Source: an uncultured delta proteobacterium (lineage in GTDB: Bacteria > Myxococcota_A > Polyangia > Palsa-1104). From it: a DNA stretch of 64,000 nt. Shown piece after piece: positions 52,176 to 62,518 of this stretch. The stretch lies in the NCBI GenBank assembly GCA_963785725.1, contig CAWAWS010000006.1:160001-224000 (forward strand), written 5' to 3'. The number at the start of each line of letters is the position of its first letter. Within the stretch, counting starts at the first letter, position 1. Below the pieces are notes generated by a model, which made no database searches, was not told the DNA's origin, and was given only the letters and a program-made list of their open reading frames with translations. A program made the translations under genes and the position numbers.

Positions 52176-52760
52176 ATGCGCCATCAGAAATCGGGTCGTA
52201 AATTTTCGCGCAAGTCGGGACCGCGTCATGCGCTCCTGTCGGGTTTGGTGACGTCGCTGATCGAGTACGAGTCGATCAAGACGACCGATGCCAAGGCCAA
52301 AGAGCTGCGCAAGGTCGCCGAGCGGACGATCAGCTGGGCCACGTCGGTCGGCACCATCGTCGGCAAGGAAAAGGCTGACGCGGCGGACAAGGCCAAGATC
52401 GTTCACGCCATGCGCATGGCGCAGCGGATCGTCAAGCACAAGCCGACGCTGCACAAGCTGTTCGAGGAGATCGGTCCGCGTTTGGTCGGTCGTCCGGGCG
52501 GCTTCTTGCGCATCATGAAGCTCGGCTATCGCAACGGCGACGCGGCTCCGGTGTCGATCATCCAGTTCGTCGACCGCGCAGCGCCGGAAGCGGCGCACGA
52601 TGCGACGGCGGACGAGGCGCCGGCGGCCAAGGGCAAGAAGGCGGCGGCGCCCAAGGCTGAAGCGAAGGCGGCGGCGCCGAAGGCGGCCAAGAAGCCGAAG
52701 GCGGAAGCCGCGGGCGAGGCCAAGCCGAAGGCGAAAGCCAAGGCTAAGAAAGACGAGTAG
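52176..52760 (+). CDS. rplQ: 50S ribosomal protein L17 with Ala/Lys/Pro-rich tail
   Basis: [29 protein letters not shown]. Confidence 0.97.
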
Positions 52761-52805
52761 TCCGCCGCTCGGCGAACGCGCCGAGCCGCCATGACGAGCA
52801 CTTCG

Positions 52806-52839
52806 AGCCCCATCGCGAAAGCGGTGGGGCTTTTTTTTT
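52806..52839 (+). terminator. Intrinsic terminator ending the ribosomal superoperon
   Basis: AGCCCCATCGC-GAAA-GCGGTGGGGCT followed by a T run. Confidence 0.9.
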
Positions 52840-52884
52840 GCCCGAAAGTTTGCGTAGCGCCCGTCGCGGGGTTGGAATCAGGCC

Positions 52885-53235
52885 GTGGGGCTGCTCATCG
52901 GGTTGACGCTGGCGTCGGCGGCGCTGTTGGTCGTGTTGCGCCTGGCGGCGCGTTCACCGTCGCTGACGGCGGGCATGCGCGTCGTCGGGCGGCTGACGCT
53001 GGAGCCGCGGCGGTCGATCTATCTGGTCGAGGTCGGTGGTCGCTGCCTGGTGGTGGGCGTGGGCGAGGGGCCGATGGCGCTGCTGAGCGAGCTGCCCGAG
53101 CTTCCGGCGGCGGGGACGACGAACGTCGCGCCGTCCGAGGCGCTGGCGCGGCCGGAGCGGTGCTGGCCGGCCGTCGACGATTGTCGCCGCGCGTGGCGGC
53201 GAGTCATCCACGGCGGCAGCGGAGACGGCGCGTGA
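52885..53235 (+). CDS. fliO: FliO/FliZ-like export-gate assembly factor
   Basis: N-terminal TM then MRVVGRLTLEPRRSIYLVEVGGRCLVVGVGEGPMALLSEL, a FliO-like beta domain. Confidence 0.7.
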   Translation: MGLLIGLTLASAALLVVLRLAARSPSLTAGMRVVGRLTLEPRRSIYLVEVGGRCLVVGVGEGPMALLSELPELPAAGTTNVAPSEALARPERCWPAVDDCRRAWRRVIHGGSGDGA

Positions 53236-53861
53236 AGGACCTGGGCGCCTGGGTGACGCTGCTCGTGGCCGTGCCGTTCGCGATCGTGGTCGCCGGCGCG
53301 TTCCTGAAGTTCGCGGTGGTGCTGGCGATCTTGCGGCGCGCGCTCGGCGGCTCGGCGCTGCCGCCGGCGTCGGTGGCGGCGGGCTTGGCGCTGTTGTTCG
53401 CGCTCTTCGTGACGGCGCCCGTCGCGCAGCGCGTGTGGGACGCAGCGCAGGCGGGCGCGCGCAAGGGAGATGCGACGGCCGCGGCCACGGCAGCCGCCGG
53501 CACGCTCGAGCCCGTGCGCGAGTTCTTGGCGCGCCACGCGCCGGCGCGCGAGCGGCAGAGCTTCCTCGAGCTGCAGCGGCAGCTGCGCCCGGCGGCCGAG
53601 CGCGCGGCGGTGAGCGACACCGATCTCGTCGTGCTGGCGCCGGCGTTCGCGACGGCGGAGCTGAAGTCGGCCTTCGAGATCGGCTTCTTGCTGTTCCTGC
53701 CGTTCCTCGTGATCGAGCTGTTGACGGCGATGGTGCTGACCTCGCTCGGCATGAACACGGTGGCGCCGGAGATGGTGTCGCTGCCGTTCAAGCTGCTGCT
53801 GTTCGTGCTCGCCGACGGTTGGCACCTGCTCTTTCGCGGGCTCATTTTGGGCTACACGTGA
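53232..53861 (+). CDS. fliP: Type III export gate protein SctR/FliP (diverged)
   Basis: FLKFAVVLAILRRALG...PP, PAFATAELKSAFEIGFLLFLPFLVI, SLPFKLLLFVLADGW; GTGA-coupled start at 53232. Confidence 0.92.
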   Translation: MKDLGAWVTLLVAVPFAIVVAGAFLKFAVVLAILRRALGGSALPPASVAAGLALLFALFVTAPVAQRVWDAAQAGARKGDATAAATAAAGTLEPVREFLARHAPARERQSFLELQRQLRPAAERAAVSDTDLVVLAPAFATAELKSAFEIGFLLFLPFLVIELLTAMVLTSLGMNTVAPEMVSLPFKLLLFVLADGWHLLFRGLILGYT

Positions 53862-54124
53862 CGGCGCTGGCGTCGGCGCTGCGCGAGGCGCTGCTGCTGC
53901 TCGTGACGCTGGCGCTGCCGCCGCTCGGCGCCGTGCTGCTCGTGGGCGTGGCGTCGGCGCTGTTGCAGACGGTGACGCAGGTGCGCGAACGGACGCTGTC
54001 GACGGTGCCGCGCATCGCGGCCGCGCTCGTGGCGCTGGCGCTGGCGGGGCCGTGGATCGGCGCGCGGCTGACGGCGTTCATGCGCGCGGTGCTGGAGGCC
54101 GTGCCGTCGCTCGGGCATTCGTGA
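53858..54124 (+). CDS. fliQ: Type III export gate protein SctS/FliQ (diverged)
   Basis: 88 aa, LQTVTQVRERTLSTVPR resembles QAxTQIxEQTLSFxPK; GPW motif; GTGA-coupled. Confidence 0.88.
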   Translation: MTALASALREALLLLVTLALPPLGAVLLVGVASALLQTVTQVRERTLSTVPRIAAALVALALAGPWIGARLTAFMRAVLEAVPSLGHS

Positions 54125-54819
54125 CAGCAGGCACGGTGACGACGGGGACGGCGGCGGCGTTCGCGGCCGCGCGCATGGTGCCGCTGGCGCTGGTGGCGAC
54201 GCCGCTGACGGGCCGCGCGTGGCCGGCGCGCCTCGTGGTCGCGGCGCTGCTCGTCGCCGGCACGACGCCGATCGTGCTGCAGCAGTCGCCGATGACGGGC
54301 TGGACCACGGAGCCGCTCGTCGGGCTGGCGCTCGGGCTCGTCGCGGCGCTGCCGTTCGCGGCGGCCGAGGCGGCGGGCGCGCTCATCGACGCCGGGATCC
54401 AGCCGTGGCGAGCGCGCGCGTCGACGCGCCCGGGGCCGCTGGCGGACGCCTACGCGCTCTTGGCGTTGGCGCTGTTCGCCGCGCTCGACGGTCCGGCGGC
54501 GACGTTGCGCGCGGCGCTCGGCAGCTACGTCGCCTGGCCGTCGGGCGCGCGGCCGACCGATGCGGAGCTGCTGGCGATCGGCGCCCGGCTCGTCGCCACG
54601 GCCGCGGAGCTGGCGGCCCCGGCGTTGGCGGCGCTGCTGCTCGCGGACCTGGCGCTGGCGCTCGTGGCGCGCGCGCAGCCGGCGTTGGCGCGCGCGGTCG
54701 ACGCCGCGCCGTTGCGCACGTTGGCGGCGCTGCTGGTGCTGGCGGGCGGCGTCTACGCGACTGCGCGCGCGCTCGGCCCGTCGCTCGAGGCGGCGGCGAC
54801 GCTGCCTCGGCTGCGCTGA
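54121..54819 (+). CDS. fliR: Type III export gate protein SctT/FliR (highly diverged, Ala-rich)
   Basis: PFAAAEAAGALID, LFAALDG, AAPALAALLLADLALALVARAQPAL; GTGA-coupled. Confidence 0.8.
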   Translation: MTAGTVTTGTAAAFAAARMVPLALVATPLTGRAWPARLVVAALLVAGTTPIVLQQSPMTGWTTEPLVGLALGLVAALPFAAAEAAGALIDAGIQPWRARASTRPGPLADAYALLALALFAALDGPAATLRAALGSYVAWPSGARPTDAELLAIGARLVATAAELAAPALAALLLADLALALVARAQPALARAVDAAPLRTLAALLVLAGGVYATARALGPSLEAAATLPRLR

Positions 54820-54904
54820 ACGCGATGCGTCGTGAACGTTTTGCGCGCTGTCGCGAGGCGTGGCTGCGATCGCGCTATTGCCCATCGTGCTACGCTGACG
54901 ACGG

Positions 54905-55570
54905 ATGCGTCTCGTCGCTGCGATCGGGTTGCTGCTGGTGACCGCGCGCACGACGATGGCCGATCCGCAGCCGCCGCAAACGCCGACCGTCGCGCCCGCG
55001 CCCTGGATCTGGCCCGACGAGGATGACCCGAAGCTGGCGCGCGGCGCCGCGCAACGGCCGCGCGACTGGCTGCACGTCACCCATGACGTCCCGCGCTTTG
55101 CCCTCAGCTATCGACTGCTGTGGACGGCCAGCCTCACCGGCGGCAAGCTGCCCTTCGACGTCGGCGAGCTCGAGTATTTCCCGGTGTCCAACCTGATCCG
55201 CTTCGGCGTCGAGGGCGAGCTCGGCTGGGCCGGCGGCACCTACGGCCAGTGGTACACGCTCTTCGGCGCCACGCTCGGCCTGCAATACCCGGCGCGCGTC
55301 ACGCCGTTCCTCGAGGGCCGCTTCGTCGCCGGCCTCTCTGGCGGCAGCTACCTCGGCCAGAGCGTCTTCAGCTGGATGTACCAAGGCGGCCTCGAAGGCG
55401 GCGCCGAGATCTACTACGCGCGGCGCTTCTACGTGTCGCTCGCCATCGGCTGGGTGCATCCGGTGTATGCGGCCGTCGACGTCGCGGCGCTGATGGAAAA
55501 GCCGGCCAAGATCATCCATAAGAGCCTCAGCGACGACACCTTCACGTTCAAGATCGGGCTCGGCCTATGA
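54905..55570 (+). CDS. Secreted, probable small outer-membrane beta-barrel protein
   Basis: Signal peptide; Gly/aromatic amphipathic strands; ends FTFKIGLGL; ATGA overlap with sctU. Confidence 0.7.
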   Translation: MRLVAAIGLLLVTARTTMADPQPPQTPTVAPAPWIWPDEDDPKLARGAAQRPRDWLHVTHDVPRFALSYRLLWTASLTGGKLPFDVGELEYFPVSNLIRFGVEGELGWAGGTYGQWYTLFGATLGLQYPARVTPFLEGRFVAGLSGGSYLGQSVFSWMYQGGLEGGAEIYYARRFYVSLAIGWVHPVYAAVDVAALMEKPAKIIHKSLSDDTFTFKIGLGL

Positions 55571-56523
55571 GCGGGCCGCTCTCGCCCTCGCCGCGACGGC
55601 TGCGCGAGGCGCGGGCGCGCGGCGACGTGGCGCATGCGCCGCTCTTGTCGACGACGGCGGCGCTGGCGGCGGCGGCGCTGGCGATCGTCTGGACGGCGCC
55701 GTCGGCGGCGGCGCGGCTGGTGGCGTTGGCGCGCGCGGCCTTTGGCGGCGCCGAGTCAGCGACCGCGTTGTCGGCGACGGCGCTGGCGACGCTCGCGCTG
55801 CTGTTCGCGCCTGTCGCCGCGGCGGCTTTCTTGGCGGCGGTCGTCGCCGGCCTCGCGCAAACGCGCTTTGCGCTCGCGTGGGGCGCGCTCGGTCGGCGGA
55901 CGCGCGGTGACGACGAGCCGCTGCCGCTCATTGGCTGGGTGGCGGCCGCGGCGACGGCGTTGGCGGCGTTGACGTGCGCGCGCGCGGCGCTGGCGGCGTT
56001 GGCGCGCAGCGACGGCACGAGCGCGGCGTTGACGGCGGCAGCGACGGCGTTGGCGGCCTTCGTCCCGCGCGCGCTGACGTTGTTGGCGCTCGGCGGCGTC
56101 GGCGAGCTGGTGCTGCGGCAGGCGCGGCTGACGGCGTCGCTGGCGATGACGCGCGCCGAGCGCGAGCGCGAGCGACGCGAGGACGAGGGCGATCCGCGGC
56201 TGCGTGCCGAGCAGCGCCGGCGCCAGCGCGCGCTCGGCCGCGACGGGCTCGCCGACGAGCTGGCGCGCGCGCAGGTCGTCGTCACCGCCGAGGGCGTGGC
56301 GGTGGCGCTGCGCTTCGTCGACGGCGCGGCGCGCGTGGCGGTCGCCTCGGGCGACGATCGCCTGCGCGCCCAGCGGCTGACGGCGATCGCGCGTCGCCTC
56401 GGTCTGCCCGTGCGCGCCGACGACGAGCTGGCGCTGGCCCTGTCGGCGCTGCCGCCCAATAGTCTCCTGACACCACGGTGGCAGCAACGTGCACAGGCGG
56501 CGTTGCGATCGCGTCGACGCTGA
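55567..56523 (+). CDS. flhB: Type III export switch protein SctU/FlhB (diverged, lacks NPTH)
   Basis: PSPRRLREARARGDV, LAMTRAERERERREDEGDP, VVVTAEGVAVALRF. Confidence 0.85.
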   Translation: MSGPLSPSPRRLREARARGDVAHAPLLSTTAALAAAALAIVWTAPSAAARLVALARAAFGGAESATALSATALATLALLFAPVAAAAFLAAVVAGLAQTRFALAWGALGRRTRGDDEPLPLIGWVAAAATALAALTCARAALAALARSDGTSAALTAAATALAAFVPRALTLLALGGVGELVLRQARLTASLAMTRAERERERREDEGDPRLRAEQRRRQRALGRDGLADELARAQVVVTAEGVAVALRFVDGAARVAVASGDDRLRAQRLTAIARRLGLPVRADDELALALSALPPNSLLTPRWQQRAQAALRSRRR

Positions 56524-56538
56524 CGTATCACTCTCGAC

Positions 56539-57429
56539 ATGCAAACGCGCGTTCGCAAAGCGGTCATCCCGGCCGCCGGGCTCGGTACGCGGTTTCTCCC
56601 GGCCACGAAGTCGGTGCCGAAGGAGATGCTGCCCATCGTCGATGTTCCGACCTTGCAGCTCATCGTCGAGGAGGCGGTGGCGGCGGGGATCGAGCAGATC
56701 GTCGTCGTCACCGGTCGCGGCAAGAGCTCGATCGAAGACCACTTCGACATGAGCTACGAGCTCGAGCGCACGCTGCGCGACCGCGGCAAGACCGAGCTGC
56801 TGGCGGGCGTCGAGCGTATCTCGCAGCTGGTGCGGCTGGTGTCGGTGCGACAAAAAGAGCCGCTCGGCCTCGGTCACGCGGTGCTGGTGGCGCGGCAGAT
56901 CATCGGCGACGAGCCGGTCGCGGTGCTGCTCGGCGACGATCTGTTCGACTGCGACGGCCGCCGTCCGGCGATCGGGCAGCTGATGGACGAGTCGGAGCGG
57001 CTCGGCGGCAAAGGCGTCGTGTCGCTGATGGAAGTGCCCGTCGGACAAGAGCAGCTGTACGGCATCGTGTCGGGCAAGCCGGAGGGCGCGCGCGGCTTCA
57101 AGATCGACGACATGGTCGAGAAGCCGGCACCGGGGACGGCGCCGTCGCGGCTGGCGATCGTCGGGCGCTATGTCTTGCCGGCGGAGATCTGGGAGATCTT
57201 GGCGCACACCAAGCCGGGCAAAGGCGGCGAGATTCAGCTGACCGACGCGCTCAAGGAGCTGGCGCAGCGCGGCTCGGGCTGTTACGGGCTGACCGTCGAC
57301 GGCACGCGCCATGATGCCGGCGACAAGCTCGGCTATTTGGGCGCGAACTTGGCGTGGGCCCTCAAGCGCGACGACTTGCGGCCGGGGCTGTTGGCGCTGA
57401 TGCGACGGCTGATCGCAGAGCAGAATTGA
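56539..57429 (+). CDS. galU: UTP-glucose-1-phosphate uridylyltransferase
   Basis: KAVIPAAGLGTRFLPATK..PKEMLP, VEKP, GEIQLTDAL. Confidence 0.97.
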   Translation: MQTRVRKAVIPAAGLGTRFLPATKSVPKEMLPIVDVPTLQLIVEEAVAAGIEQIVVVTGRGKSSIEDHFDMSYELERTLRDRGKTELLAGVERISQLVRLVSVRQKEPLGLGHAVLVARQIIGDEPVAVLLGDDLFDCDGRRPAIGQLMDESERLGGKGVVSLMEVPVGQEQLYGIVSGKPEGARGFKIDDMVEKPAPGTAPSRLAIVGRYVLPAEIWEILAHTKPGKGGEIQLTDALKELAQRGSGCYGLTVDGTRHDAGDKLGYLGANLAWALKRDDLRPGLLALMRRLIAEQN

Positions 57430-59831
57430 TCGCACGCGTCGCCGTCTTCGCGCCGGTACCGCGGGCGTTCGACTACCGCGTACCGCCGGCGCTGGCGACG
57501 GGAATGACGGTGGGCGCGCGCGTGTGGGCGCCGTTCGGCGGACGCGCGCTCGAAGGTGTCGTGGTGGCGATCGATCCGGCGGACGCGCATGGCGAGGCGC
57601 GCCCGTTGTCGCGGCGAGTGGAGGCGCCGCCGGTGTCGCCCGAGCTGATGCAGTTGGGCGCTTGGATCTCCGACTACTATTGCGCGCCGCCGGGTGAGGT
57701 CATGCGCTTGATGTTGCCGGCGGGCGGCAAGGCGCGGGCGCGACGACGTGTGACGTTGACGGCGGCGGGGCACGACGCAGCGGCCGGGCTGACGGCGGCG
57801 CTCGAGCCGATGTCGCTGCAGGGGCTCGATGGCGAAGCGCGCGGGCTCTTGCAGCAGCTCTTTGACAATCCTAAAGGTGGCGATGAAAAGGCGCGCGGGC
57901 TGCCGGCGCTGATCGAGCGTGGGCTCGTCGACGTGGCTGAGTCGGTGTCGACGCGCGGGGCGCAGATGGAGACGATCTTGCGTCCCGCCGGCGCGCTCAC
58001 GCCCGAGGCGCAGGTGACGCTGTTCGGGCGCGCCAAACGACGCGGCGAGGTCTACGCGCGCATCGCGGCGGCGGGCGAGATCTCGTTGTCGGCGTTGAAG
58101 GCGGAGGATGCGCGCGCTGGCGAGCATGCGCGCGCGCTCGTCGAGGCGGGGCTGGCGACCGCGGAGCTGCGCGAGCAGGCGGTGGCCGATCCGTTCGAGG
58201 ACGCCGCGCCCGACGCGCCGCCCGCGGCGTTGACGGCGGCGCAGCTGGCGGCGCTCGACGCCATCGAGCCGGCGTTGACGGCCGGTCGGTATGCGCCGTT
58301 CCTGCTGCACGGCGTGACCGGTTCGGGCAAGACCGAGGTCTACTTGCGCGCGATCGCGTCGGCCATCGCGCTCGGCAAGCGGGCGCTCGTGCTCGTGCCC
58401 GAGATCTCGCTGACGCCGCAGCTGGCGGCGCGCTTTCGCGGACGGTTCGGCGATCGCGTGGCCGTCTTGCACAGCGGGCTCAGCGATGCGGCGCGCGCGG
58501 ACGCGTGGCGGCGCATTCAGCGCGGGCAGGTCGACATCGCGCTCGGCGCGCGCTCGGCGGTGTTCGCGCCGCTCGAGCGGCTCGGCATCGTGGTCGTGGA
58601 CGAGGAGCACGATCCGTCGTTCAAGCAGGAGGAGGGCGTGCGCTACCACGGGCGCGACGTGGCGATGGTGCGCGCGCGTAACGCCGGCGCAGTCGTGCTG
58701 CTCGGCTCGGCGACGCCGGCGCTGGAGACGTTCGTGGCCGCCCGCGACGGGCGACTGACCCGGCTGGCGCTGCCGGAGCGCGCGACGCCGCGACCGCTGC
58801 CGACGGTGGAGATCGTCGACCTGAAGCAGCACAAAGGCGTGCTGACACACGTGCTGTTGCGCGCGATCGAGGACACGCTGAAGGCGGGCGAGCAGGCGAT
58901 CCTGTTCCTCAATCGCCGCGGCTTTGCGACGTTTTCGCTGTGTAAAGGCTGCGGCGAGGCGGTGCGTTGCCGGCACTGCTCGGTGTCGCTGACGTTCCAT
59001 CGCGGCGACGGGCGTCTCGTCTGTCACTACTGCGGCTTCTCGATGGCGCCGTCGAAGACTTGCAGCGCCTGCGGCAAGCCGGCGGTCGAGCAGCTCGGCT
59101 ACGGCACGGAGCAGCTCGAGGACATGCTGCGGCAGCAGTTTCCGGCGGCGCGCGTGGCTCGGCTCGACCGCGACACGGCGGCTGGTGATGGCCTGCGCCA
59201 GATGCTCGACGACTTCCGCGCGCGCAAGATCGACCTGCTCGTCGGTACGCAGATGGTGACGAAGGGGCACGATTTTCCGGGTGTGACGCTCGTCGGTGTC
59301 GTGCTCGCCGATCAGGGGCTGAACTTGCCCGACTTTCGCGCGATGGAGCGGACGTTTCAGCTGCTCGAGCAGGTCGCCGGACGCGCTGGACGTGGCGAGC
59401 GGCCGGGTCGCGTGATCTTGCAGACGTTCCGGCCGACGGCGGAGGCGATCACCTGCGCGCGCGATCATGACTACGAGCGCTTCGCCGACATCGAGCTGCG
59501 TTCGCGGCTGGAGCCAATCTATCCGCCGCATACGCGGATGGCGTGCGTGCGCGTCGACGGGGCCGATCCGCTGATGGTGCGCGACGCGGCGACGCGGGCG
59601 GCGGCGGCGGCCGCGAAGCTGGCCGAGCGGGCGCCGCCGGAAGCCAAGGCGACGGTGTTGGGACCGGCGGAGGCGCCGTTGTCGCGGTTGAAGGGGCGCA
59701 CGCGCTGGCAGCTGTTCACGCAGGCGACGCAGCCGAGCGTCGTGCGGGCGTTGGCGCGGGCGGCGACCGAGGTGGGTGCGCCGTCCGGGGTGCGCTTCAG
59801 CGTCGACGTCGATCCCATCTCCATGTTGTGA
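57426..59831 (+). CDS. priA: Primosomal protein N' (replication restart helicase)
   Basis: GVTGSGKTE, DEEH, Cys clusters, GTQMVTKGHDF, QVAGRAGR; TTG start overlapping galU stop. Confidence 0.96.
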   Translation: MIARVAVFAPVPRAFDYRVPPALATGMTVGARVWAPFGGRALEGVVVAIDPADAHGEARPLSRRVEAPPVSPELMQLGAWISDYYCAPPGEVMRLMLPAGGKARARRRVTLTAAGHDAAAGLTAALEPMSLQGLDGEARGLLQQLFDNPKGGDEKARGLPALIERGLVDVAESVSTRGAQMETILRPAGALTPEAQVTLFGRAKRRGEVYARIAAAGEISLSALKAEDARAGEHARALVEAGLATAELREQAVADPFEDAAPDAPPAALTAAQLAALDAIEPALTAGRYAPFLLHGVTGSGKTEVYLRAIASAIALGKRALVLVPEISLTPQLAARFRGRFGDRVAVLHSGLSDAARADAWRRIQRGQVDIALGARSAVFAPLERLGIVVVDEEHDPSFKQEEGVRYHGRDVAMVRARNAGAVVLLGSATPALETFVAARDGRLTRLALPERATPRPLPTVEIVDLKQHKGVLTHVLLRAIEDTLKAGEQAILFLNRRGFATFSLCKGCGEAVRCRHCSVSLTFHRGDGRLVCHYCGFSMAPSKTCSACGKPAVEQLGYGTEQLEDMLRQQFPAARVARLDRDTAAGDGLRQMLDDFRARKIDLLVGTQMVTKGHDFPGVTLVGVVLADQGLNLPDFRAMERTFQLLEQVAGRAGRGERPGRVILQTFRPTAEAITCARDHDYERFADIELRSRLEPIYPPHTRMACVRVDGADPLMVRDAATRAAAAAAKLAERAPPEAKATVLGPAEAPLSRLKGRTRWQLFTQATQPSVVRALARAATEVGAPSGVRFSVDVDPISML

Positions 59832-62518
59832 AAAAGGCGCTACCATTGCGGGTCGTGCAGCCGCCGTCCGTCGTCATCGCCGCCAACCCGTACGAGGCCG
59901 AGCTGTGCCGGCGAGCGCTCGTCGACACCGGCCTGCAAGTGCTCGTGGCCGACGGTGGCGAAGGCGCGCTCGAGATGGTCCTTAAGACGCGTCCACTGGT
60001 GCTGGTGGTGGCGCTTGGCCTCCTCGACGTCGATTCGCTCGATCTCGTGCGCGATGTGCGTATCGGCGACTCCAAGCTGCCCATTTTCCTGCTCGGCGAT
60101 CGCGAAGGCGAAGTGCGCGACGAGGATGCTGCGGCGCGGCTGGGTGCGACGCGGCTGTTCTTGCGGCCGATCGAGATCGACGCGCTGGCCGACGCCATCG
60201 AGAAGCGCGCGGTCGAGGCCGAAATTCACGACGAGGTGTCGGAGGCGATCGAGGAATTCAGCGTGCGGCCGCCGACGATCGATGCGGCGCCGCTGGTCGA
60301 GGAGTCGATCGTCGAGCTGGAGGCTGATTACGGCGACGACGAGTCGGACGACGAGCCGCTGAACGCGCCGCCGCAGCGCGTGCCGCGCGAGCCGACGCAG
60401 GTGCTCGGGCGCGACAGCGAGCCGGTCGCGCCGAGCTACGCGCGCGACGCGGTGCGGTCGGACGACGGGCTGCGCGGCGAGGCGCGCGCTTCGTTCGATG
60501 GACTGCGCGCCGCCGGTGCGCGCGATGCCCACGATGGCGGTCGCGATGCGCGCGATGGCGGTCGCGAAGCGCGCGATGGCGGTCGCGAAGCGCGTGACGC
60601 CGGCGGCGAGCGCGACGCGAACGGCACGGCGCGCACGGAGTTGGCGAGCGGCCGGCCGTCCAATGCGGGCAACAGCGACGGGCGCGCGTCGCTGCCGACC
60701 GAGACGGTGCCGCTGCGCGTGGAGCTGAAGGCGCCGTCGTCGGTGACGCTGACGGAGCCGCTGTTGCGCGCCGATGACGCGCTCGATGGCGTCGGCTTGC
60801 AGTCGCTGGTCGGCTCGCCCGATTTCGTACGCCGCGGCGAGCGTCCGGTCGACGCCGCCGACGCAGGCGCGCGTACGGCCGACGGCGAGCGCGCGGTCAA
60901 TCGCGGCGCCAGCAATCGCGCGGCCGTGACGAATCTCGCGGCGGGCGAGCGCCTCGCCACGAAGGACTATGCGGCGAGCGATCGCGCGGGCAGGGCCCCT
61001 CGCGCGACGGGCGAGCGCGCCGACGACGCGCACGGCGACGGCGAGCGTGGGCGAACGGAGTTCGACGAGCGCGGCAGCTTCGCGCGTCGCCTCGAGAACG
61101 AGCTGTCGGCGGCCGAGCGGCGCCTTTTTCCCAACACGCCGTCGACGGCGAGCGGTCGCGCCGAGCGGTACGAAGACGCGCTCGGCGACATCGATCTCGA
61201 CGCGCTCGGCATCGACACGATTCCCGGCATCGGCGCCGACGCGTTCGAAGGCATCGAGCCGCGCAACGGCAAGCCGCGCGCGACGTCGCAAGCGACGCCG
61301 GAGCCGCCGATCGTCAACAGCGGTGCGCGCGCCGACGCCATCGATCGACGCGCCGACGCCGTCGAGCCGCGCGGCCACATCGACGATCGCGCCGCGCGTC
61401 CGCCGCTGCCCGACGACGAAGGCGATCTCGCCGAAGCCGACCTGGCCACGCTCGTCGCCGCGCTGCATTCGGGCGGCTTCTCGGGCGCGCTGACGCTCGG
61501 ACGCGGCGACGGCGAGAAGACGCTCTTCTTCGACGATGGCCTGCTCGTCGGTGCGCGCTCGATGTTCGTGCACGATCGCCTGGCCGACCTGCTCGTGCGC
61601 GAGGGCACCATCGGCCGCGAGGCGCAGACGCGCGTGCGCGACATCGCGGACGGGGGCCGTCGCGCGGCGCTGCAGCTGGTCGAGCGCGGGCTCATCAAGT
61701 CGAGCGAGCTGTTCGCTGTTTTGCGCCGCCACGTCGAGGAGATCTTCTTCTCCTGCTTTGCCTGGGAGCGCGGTCATTATCGGTTGGGGCGCGAGCAGTC
61801 GGCGCCGGAAGATCGCGTGCGCATGGGGAGCCATCCGTGGGCGCTGGTCGTCGAGGGTGTGCGGCGGAAATACAGCCTCGAGCGGCTGGTCGAGCGTGTC
61901 GGCCCGCCCGAGACGGTGTTGACGCCGACGACGGCGCTGACGCGTGCGCTCGAGGACTGCGCGCTGACGCCGCCCGAGCGCGATCGCGCCGAGTTGCTCG
62001 ACGGCGAGCGTTCGTTGGCCGAGCTGCAGCTGGGCGCCGTCGGTGCGCCGCTGGCCGAGGCGGGCTTGTATGCGCTGGCGTGGGGCCTCATCGCCGTCGG
62101 CGCCGCGCGTTTCGACGGCGACGAGCCGGTGGCGGGCGTCGGCGTGCGCGCCGTGCCGACGCTGGTGACGACGTCGTACGATCGCCGCCGCCGGCCGCGT
62201 CCGCTCGAGCGCGCGCGCGATCGCGATGCCGACCGTGCCGTCGACAAAGAGCGCGTCCTCGCCAAGCGCGCGCAAGTGCAAGACGGTGACTATTTTGCCG
62301 TGCTCGGGTTGGCGCGGGATGCATCGCCGCACGAGGTGGCGCGGGCGTTCGAGCGGCTGAAGCGCGAATATGCGCCCGAGCGCTTCGCCGAGCCGTTGCG
62401 CGCGGAGCTGGCGTCGGCGTTGGCGGAGATCAGCGCCGTCCTCGACGAGGCCCACCGCGTGCTTGCCGACGACCGCGTGCGCAAGAGCTATCGCGACCAC
62501 CTGCCGCCGCCGGCCTGA
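59828..62518 (+). CDS. Receiver-like, long acidic linker, DUF4388-like and DnaJ-like domain protein
   Basis: Degenerate REC at the N-terminus; GDL...L..L...FSGALTL...KTLFF..G; C-terminal DYFAVLGL...YAPERF. Confidence 0.8.
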   Translation: MKKALPLRVVQPPSVVIAANPYEAELCRRALVDTGLQVLVADGGEGALEMVLKTRPLVLVVALGLLDVDSLDLVRDVRIGDSKLPIFLLGDREGEVRDEDAAARLGATRLFLRPIEIDALADAIEKRAVEAEIHDEVSEAIEEFSVRPPTIDAAPLVEESIVELEADYGDDESDDEPLNAPPQRVPREPTQVLGRDSEPVAPSYARDAVRSDDGLRGEARASFDGLRAAGARDAHDGGRDARDGGREARDGGREARDAGGERDANGTARTELASGRPSNAGNSDGRASLPTETVPLRVELKAPSSVTLTEPLLRADDALDGVGLQSLVGSPDFVRRGERPVDAADAGARTADGERAVNRGASNRAAVTNLAAGERLATKDYAASDRAGRAPRATGERADDAHGDGERGRTEFDERGSFARRLENELSAAERRLFPNTPSTASGRAERYEDALGDIDLDALGIDTIPGIGADAFEGIEPRNGKPRATSQATPEPPIVNSGARADAIDRRADAVEPRGHIDDRAARPPLPDDEGDLAEADLATLVAALHSGGFSGALTLGRGDGEKTLFFDDGLLVGARSMFVHDRLADLLVREGTIGREAQTRVRDIADGGRRAALQLVERGLIKSSELFAVLRRHVEEIFFSCFAWERGHYRLGREQSAPEDRVRMGSHPWALVVEGVRRKYSLERLVERVGPPETVLTPTTALTRALEDCALTPPERDRAELLDGERSLAELQLGAVGAPLAEAGLYALAWGLIAVGAARFDGDEPVAGVGVRAVPTLVTTSYDRRRRPRPLERARDRDADRAVDKERVLAKRAQVQDGDYFAVLGLARDASPHEVARAFERLKREYAPERFAEPLRAELASALAEISAVLDEAHRVLADDRVRKSYRDHLPPPA
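60532..60594 (+). repeat. 21-bp in-frame tandem repeat x3 (DGGR[D/E]AR)
   Basis: cgatggcggtcgcga[t/a]gcgcg repeated. Confidence 0.75.

Follow-up and report, generated by a model that had tools for sequence, protein, structure and literature searches.

A type III export-gate operon with a predicted barrel gene in an uncultured polyangial bacterium, very probably one part of a scattered type III gene set

We analyzed six genes, fliO-sctR-sctS-sctT-X-sctU, at positions 52885 to 56523 of a 64,000-nucleotide stretch of DNA, hereafter the window, from an uncultured delta proteobacterium of the Polyangia, phylum Myxococcota (assembly GCA_963785725.1, contig CAWAWS010000006.1, positions 160,001 to 224,000 of the forward strand). 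Five of the genes encode homologues of the type III export gate, and the sixth, X, encodes a predicted outer-membrane beta-barrel. The operon is very probably part of a scattered type III system of a Myxococcota type. We consider it probable that it forms the gate of a needle-less, non-flagellar system whose other genes lie at four further loci and whose likely task is to move proteins through the inner membrane to the periplasm, and fairly probable that this system still works as a protein exporter; participation in predation is conceivable but doubtful.

Gate operon and its partners elsewhere in the genome

All six frames are open, lie on the + strand between the rplQ terminator and galU, and are joined by four-base GTGA/ATGA overlaps at 53232, 53858, 54121 and 55567, with a gap of 85 nt between sctT and X. 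The first gene, fliO (52885..53235; PF04347, E 6.8e-12), codes for a FliO-family chaperone for SctR assembly and is followed by the gene of the export-gate core, sctR (53232..53861; PF00813 (FliP), E 1e-55; NF009438 above cut-off), and by sctS (53858..54124; PF01313 (Bac_export_3), E 1e-20), sctT (54121..54819; PF01311 (Bac_export_1), E 7e-22), X (54905..55570) and a full-length sctU (55567..56523; PF01312 (Bac_export_2), E 1e-33), the product of which has FlhB/EscU/YscU matches spanning residues 8-294. The five gate proteins clear the curated Pfam cut-offs, and Pfam and NCBIfam searches with X returned no family. These results bear out a reading made from the window's sequence alone (the sequence-only reading), which had recognized five open, overlapping gate homologues at this place. 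Its description of the proteins as extremely Ala-rich is right for SctT (29.6% Ala, reached by 0.06% of 6,990 called genes) and SctU (27.3%, ~0.3%), describes a moderate enrichment in SctR and SctS (20%, which 5.9% of called genes reach), and does not apply to FliO (12.8%) or X (10.4%).

The remainder of the type III set was found elsewhere in the genome, among housekeeping genes: a solo sctV (C7:204881-206857), the pair sctL-sctN (C7:479758-481827), a solo sctJ (C15:308370-309155) and sctQ (C6:325589-326701). Together with the operon, the set occupies five loci on three contigs. Because the 109 kb between sctQ and sctU fall within one contig, and the 273 kb between sctN and sctV within another, the scatter is not an assembly artefact. 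The non-flagellar SctV, SctN, SctL, SctJ and SctQ each score best against Sct-named models, and among equivalog models only SctQ clears the cut-off. Searches of the whole genome returned FlhA/SctV, FliP/SctR and FliF/SctJ twice each, FliI/SctN twice above the cut-off, and FliMN_C three times. A complete flagellar cluster with motor, hook, flagellin and its own fliOPQR-flhB-flhA gate lies at C29:27000-67500 (genes outside the searched families were read by eye), and flagellar clusters also occur in many relatives of the class. The window had been said to hold no SctV/FlhA, ATPase, ring or flagellar gene, and the genome-wide searches indeed place SctV, SctN, SctJ, SctQ and the flagellar homologues outside it. 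The same searches rule out an orphan gate, as the operon had been labeled, since its usual partners are encoded at these four other loci; the other suggestion, that it belongs to a type III system whose pieces are spread over the genome, is the one upheld.

Several components were not found, and every such result is limited by an assembly of 8.89 Mb in 47 contigs that is 88% complete. The needle protein family SctF (PF09392) had no match at E 0.1 genome-wide. SctD (TIGR02500) gave 10 matches, none above the cut-off, nine of them confined to the first 59 positions of the model and one reaching position 138 at E 4e-4. Profiles built from relatives for SctO and for the protein encoded between SctJ and SctL detected nothing convincing in the genome; C26:207778 matched as a SctO candidate only weakly (E 8e-4) and was rejected, since to the eye it looks like a TPR lipoprotein. 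The gene at C7:484021 was tried as SctK, which a profile comparison did not support (probability 1.5%); it encodes an Ala-rich 284-aa protein without a family (C7:484021-484875), stands three genes upstream of sctL in this genome and immediately before it in genome G048, and has no match to the J-L spacer protein of the phylum's other class. Of four secretins in the genome, two have GspD as their top-scoring model (414 and 349 bits; cut-off 351) and one has PilQ, and the fourth, in a Tad-like context, has SctC as its best NCBIfam score at 80.7 bits against a cut-off of 238. The second GspD-type secretin stands alone at C2:235495-237744, apart from the type II secretion operon. Directly upstream of sctI-sctJ, two family f30 genomes encode an L,D-transpeptidase that bears a peptidoglycan-binding domain (L343:4827-6929; L345:12805-14853).

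Descent, constraint and distribution

The place of the gate relative to flagella and injectisomes was assessed in two trees, one of SctV (43 of 54 rows kept after near-duplicates and one long branch were dropped; LG+C20) and one of SctR (58 of 75 aligned rows, near-duplicates dropped; quick search). In the SctV tree 14 flagellar rows were split from the rest with 100/100 support, the genome's solo SctV fell on the non-flagellar side, and seven injectisome rows formed a clade (100/99) nested among 22 Myxococcota rows that made up a grade. The SctR tree gave the same three-part picture, with SH-aLRT values of 100 for the flagellar split and 99 for the injectisomes. That these genes are flagellar paralogues is therefore ruled out by both trees: a complete flagellar set exists elsewhere in the genome, as the sequence-only reading had allowed, and the operon genes do not cluster with it. 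The Myxococcota rows were a grade and not a clade in both trees, which may be a product of long branches and biased composition, the latter flagged in the tree run. Common descent across both classes is supported by a shared gasket motif in SctR, MHM, present in 10/23 rows from the rest of the class and 7/10 from the other class.

Selection was examined by pairwise GY94 fits against two same-genus relatives, many of which, above all those with F61 frequencies, reached saturated dS. The omega values were 0.157 and 0.122 for fliO, 0.018 and saturated for sctR, 0.060 and 0.034 for sctS, saturated for sctT, 0.100 and 0.116 for X, and 0.153 and 0.105 for sctU, compared with 0.044 and 0.032 for rpoA and 0.031 and 0.045 for galU as controls; each of the six genes rejected omega = 1 (2dL 23-177). 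Nei-Gojobori estimates within the genus were higher (operon genes 0.27-0.62, galU 0.17-0.18, priA 0.35-0.37), likely because a GC3 above 0.9 compresses dS. All six genes are thus constrained, and FliO, SctT, SctU and X are less so than housekeeping genes. With open frames, a GC3 of 0.91-0.97 and these omega tests, pseudogenes are ruled out, in agreement with the earlier inference from the overlapping frames, and the dN/dS near 1 that would have spoken for decay did not occur, the ratios lying far below 1.

The operon recurs in relatives. SctR/FliP was matched in 53/61 of them, flagellar copies counted in, and 40 of 70 listed SctR/FliP places, picked non-randomly by score and spread, were inspected, of which four were flagellar and 36 non-flagellar. 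Fifteen of these 36, spread over seven families of the class, followed rplQ or rpoA immediately or at a remove of one gene. Gene content among the 36 ranged from the complete O-R-S-T-X-U arrangement (10 loci) through O-R-S-T plus U without X (4), O-R-S-T (9), O-R-S (3) and O-R-S with X further on (1) to O-R or R alone (7), the remaining two being cut by a contig end. Across 121 genomes of the class, SctV/FlhA was matched in 106, SctJ/FliF in 95 and SctU/FlhB in 88, with full SctJ-type matches in 63 by hand count, and many relatives carry the non-flagellar set only. The other class of the phylum follows the same plan in fewer pieces: in the one-contig genome G156 the block sctI-J-(unknown)-L-N is found at 0.88 Mb, followed by sctV at 2.72 Mb and by fliO-sctRSTU at 4.59 Mb. 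The split is also seen along one contig of G118. No clustered locus of the Myxococcus xanthus type was recognized among the loci inspected from samples of the phylum and the other class.

Altered gate motifs, protein X and predicted expression

The sequence-only reading had also noted a loss of hallmark residues, and this loss is real. The autocleavage motif NPTH of SctU is replaced by TAEG at the aligned place, the methionine gasket of SctR reads MNT instead of MMM, and the SctT plug spans 17 residues by alignment count compared with 22 (8-22 in the genome's own family, 21-23 in flagella and injectisomes). None of 14 non-flagellar SctU proteins of the class has NPTH: two still have Asn-Pro (NPDH, NPEH), four stop short of the motif and eight carry unrelated residues (a further row, truncated at a contig end, was left out). 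The motif is retained in 7/7 rows of the other class, 11/13 flagellar rows and 7/8 injectisome rows. Short SctU frames recur in family f4 and in members of families f12 and f24, the f4 matches stopping at about profile position 238. Other parts of the machinery are conserved: the cytoplasmic loop of SctV is intact in an alignment with flagellar and injectisome rows, SctN has Walker-type motifs as read from its sequence, and SctS retains both glutamines found in the reference rows as well as their acidic/basic pair (K to R). Reference injectisomes deviate as well: a Burkholderia Hrp2 SctR has the gasket MNQ, and in the alignment NPTH is absent from SctU of Sinorhizobium fredii NGR234 (L248:4206-5243). 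Neither the gasket change nor the loss of NPTH therefore proves inactivity. A complex prediction with two SctR and SctT scored 0.04, which weighs neither for nor against the gate.

Protein X was modeled (pLDDT 88.7) as an N-terminal helix followed by a barrel that we read as 8-stranded; the helix, which is hydrophobic, is read as a putative signal peptide. Its best fold match was NspA (E 6e-6), followed by OmpA and OmpW, at identities of 15% or less, and X thus shares the predicted 8-stranded fold of NspA and of the OmpA/OmpW transmembrane domains. It differs from them in having no Pfam family and in being tied to a type III gene, a tie that was not found described in the literature searched. 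Its Atlas neighbours come from Myxococcota, one cluster having OMP_b-brl on 27% of its members, and at E 0.001 it has 132 relatives, all 120 of those listed being unnamed or hypothetical. X was matched in 39/121 genomes of the class and lies within ~1.5 kb of sctU/sctT on the same strand in 15 of these 39, from seven families (12 seen among 30 inspected loci, three taken from coordinates), with two more within 3 kb. The earlier suggestion of an orphan, stripped-down gate with a new partner set accordingly fails as to the orphan status and is partly supported as to a new partner by the linkage of X. An 8-stranded barrel is too narrow for protein passage; X is for this reason more likely a surface or anchoring partner, or a mere co-transcribed gene, and the predicted strand number rules it out as a substitute for a secretin.

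The operon follows the conserved rplQ gene (52176..52760, +) and the intrinsic terminator of the ribosomal-protein/rpoA/rplQ operon (52805..52841, +; 12-pair stem and T-run at 52805-52832); hairpins resembling this terminator are visible in relatives of the same family. A predicted sigma70-type promoter (52850..52878, +; -35 TTGCGT, 17 nt, -10 TGGAAT) ends 6 nt 5' of the fliO start, a spacing which implies that the fliO mRNA would be leaderless. At 16/34 non-flagellar and 0/4 flagellar fliO genes an in-frame start was preceded by a sigma70-type pattern whose end lay 5-8 nt away, against a background of 97/6,613 called genes of the genome; the pattern was defined after the sequences had been inspected, and the background test used a slightly different form of it. 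A strict promoter scan found none. The solo sctV is preceded by a similar sigma70-type site. A partial likeness by eye upstream of fliO had suggested a shared sigma28 promoter, an idea given up in favor of the sigma70-type pattern. The solo sctJ has just upstream of it a gene for a second FliA/WhiG-like sigma factor (C15:309600-310364), and the pairing of a FliA-like sigma factor with sctJ was also seen in 3/20 regions (G044, G148 and G050). Upstream of sctL there are three near-repeats of a ATGCAAATGCATAAT-like word (C7:481828-481927), which are possibly an operator. Downstream, the conserved gene galU (56539..57429, +) starts 15 nt after sctU and possibly shares a transcript with the operon; priA is next, and 3' of it a receiver-DUF4388-DnaJ protein is encoded at window positions 59822-62518, a gene kept downstream of the operon in close relatives.

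Proposed function, alternatives and related systems

From established type III biology, FliO would aid the assembly of SctR, and a gate of SctR5-S4-T1 with uncleaved SctU would be enclosed by a SctV ring, itself lying in a SctJ ring, and would be fed unfolded substrates by SctN, SctL and SctQ. Without needle, rod and large ring there would be no length control to switch, and for that reason the cleavage of SctU, often together with its whole cytoplasmic domain, may have become dispensable. Separate housekeeping promoters would allow the cluster to break up, and X would reach the envelope by the Sec/BAM route as a surface or anchoring partner.

A number of observations weigh against this proposal of a needle-less exporter. 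The trees hold no named Myxococcus (and hence no M. xanthus), Stigmatella, Anaeromyxobacter or Chlamydia sequences. A SctI profile built from relatives finds nothing below E 0.14 in the genome, yet it matches at least 15 sctJ loci of the class. SctT, SctU, FliO and X evolve faster than the controls (omega 0.10-0.16 versus 0.03-0.05; by Nei-Gojobori 0.49-0.62 versus 0.17-0.18 for galU, with dS near saturation). The SctR gasket keeps one Met of three, and according to the available text of Huesing et al. (PMC8239009) gasket and plug seal the pore and triple M-loop substitutions nearly abolish function and export in Salmonella. X is unlinked in five f4 loci inspected, and a second X copy, found in this genome and three others, is here likewise unlinked, lying among unrelated genes (C20:107864-108529, 221 aa). 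Among relatives, 9/10 genomes of family f3 have no SctU/FlhB match. Obligate linkage is contradicted by the same-genus G003 (99% complete, 430 contigs), in which sctV and sctJ are present while SctR, SctU and X had no match, and by G015, which had none for SctR, SctV, SctJ or SctU.

Several of these points would also fit a slowly decaying vestige or a non-exporting scaffold, in which SctR, SctV and SctN are kept structurally while SctT, SctU and the seals drift. Such a reading, which we regard as unlikely, gains from the absence of the gate operon in G003 and of all four matches in G015, from the four of 14 class SctU copies that stop before the cytoplasmic domain and the short f4 frames, and from a mean gasket Met number of 1.0 in the own family (n=10) and 0.18 in f2+f3 (n=11), compared with 1.4 in other Myxococcota, 2.3 in flagella and 2.5 in injectisomes. 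Against it stand the rejection of omega = 1 for all six genes, SctT and SctU included, the open frames with their high GC3, and a locus kept at rplQ in seven families; moreover, the plug shows little conservation and Salmonella can export without it, as the available text of PMC8239009 has it, and the Burkholderia Hrp2 SctR and NGR234 SctU deviate as well. If the gate instead served as a platform for membrane tubes or envelope remodeling (the 'CORE' model) and not for protein export, eroded seals would matter less, and that model needs a FliOPQR-FlhB-FlhA-like set, with Myxococci named in the accessible part of PMC6456723 as having CORE genes without the rest. We nonetheless consider it very unlikely, as SctN, SctL, SctQ and SctJ are retained too and the model is disputed by a paper whose title reads 'Bacterial nanotubes as a manifestation of cell death' (PMC7532143). 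That the operon supplies the genome's own flagellum with spare or auxiliary gene copies is scarcely credible: FliO is classically flagellar, and SctS and SctU score marginally higher against the FliQ and FlhB models than against the Sct models (70.1 versus 58.3 and 89.1 versus 86.2 bits), but the C29 cluster has its own complete gate, the trees split both sets with full support, and many relatives possess the non-flagellar set by itself.

A special case of the needle-less exporter would be a counterpart of the M. xanthus T3SS* (MXAN_2434-2464), working with Tad/Kil at prey contact and releasing its substrates through the Tad secretin so that prey is lysed; we hold this to be rather doubtful. 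The two share SctRSTUV, SctN, SctL, SctQ and SctJ, the lack of a needle, and a Tad-like cluster in the genome, and T3SS* acts with Kil in prey lysis in the account given by the accessible text of PMC10433427. Here a Tad/Kil-like cluster lies at C15:211000-224700 (TadB/C-type PF00482 and FHA matches, an ATPase, and pilin-like genes by eye), and at C4:103100-105615 a secretin gene is followed by those of a TPR protein and a prepilin peptidase (both by eye). T3SS*, however, is one cluster with SctD, SctI and LcrH-type chaperones, as described in the available portions of PMC10433427 and PMC10196010, and SctD and SctI were not found here; no Tad gene was recognized beside the genome's type III loci, and the 'short' Myxo description is the better match for the gene set, so far as PMC3459982 sets it out in the text available. 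The other M. xanthus system, T3SS(2), is reported as inactive in killing in the part of PMC10196010 at hand.

The closest known relative of the needle-less system proposed here is this Myxo short variant, likely M. xanthus T3SS(2) (MXAN_5643-5654), with which it was compared by description. Abby and Rocha (2012, PMC3459982; available text) describe 'Myxo' systems as clustered, with conserved gene order and in Cystobacterineae only, and scattered systems in Chlamydiales. Like the Myxo T3SS, the present set has SctR, S, T, U, V, SctN and SctJ, no SctF and no large ring that was found, and belongs to a non-flagellar branch outside the secretin-bearing injectisomes; FliO is present in both M. xanthus systems as well (PMC12403147, accessible portion). 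Unlike the Myxo T3SS, it occurs in Polyangia at five loci, without detectable SctI, with NPTH lost and with barrel X. It therefore shares the core of the Myxo needle-less T3SS and fails the SctI and clustering features. With the Chlamydiales injectisome it shares a spread of core genes over several loci, which PMC3459982, again in its available text, ties to constitutive expression, a tie that the predicted housekeeping promoter here parallels; the Chlamydiales systems differ in being secretin-bearing and in injecting eukaryotic cells. The flagellar FliOPQR-FlhB set has homologous proteins in the same O-P-Q-R-B order, but the present gate falls in a separate, fully supported clade and has SctJ-, SctL-, SctN- and SctQ-type partners. 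Nor is it a canonical injectisome: SctD and SctF were not found, no secretin scored over the SctC cut-off, and it lies outside the injectisome clade.

In print the system is less unprecedented than it may seem, because FliO-bearing type III systems of Myxococcota, both M. xanthus ones among them, are reported in PMC12403147 (2025; this and the following sources as far as accessible). The dataset of that paper labels many Polyangia FliO proteins 'T3SS', including PNAM01000092.1_41, the contig of which carries the same operon, so that an orthologous fliO was already tabulated as such; the cultured Nannocystis, Plesiocystis and Enhygromyxa are also tabulated there with a non-flagellar 'T3SS' FliO. 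Myxobacterial T3SS are placed mainly in Myxococcales in PMC10196010, and SctV and SctR are noted in Polyangia in PMC11509652. The five-locus scatter, the loss of the SctU switch and the barrel were not found described in the literature searched, which left most subscription papers outside and in which Figure 5 of PMC3459982 could show a split.

A broader picture, for which we claim only a modest chance, is that Polyangia possess a constitutive housekeeping exporter in five transcription units, among the most reduced that still work, with no needle, rod, large ring or secretin, with a SctU that in several lineages has lost its cleavage or its entire cytoplasmic domain, a gate sealed without a Met gasket and an 8-stranded barrel as a new partner, and that it descended from a flagellum-to-injectisome intermediate, injectisomes having arisen within Myxococcota diversity and not beside it. 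Needle-less myxobacterial systems are a proposed living intermediate between flagellum and injectisome, and they were described as clustered loci of one subgroup; our data extend them to a second class in a fragmented form, which cluster-based searches would miss. Exported substrates and the sealing of a gate without its gasket are thereby opened to testing, and strains for such experiments likely exist, given the cultured carriers already tabulated. As NPTH, the cytoplasmic domain of SctU, gasket methionines, the plug and SctI have here undergone natural losses under purifying selection, these features may be needed only for the building of a needle or filament.

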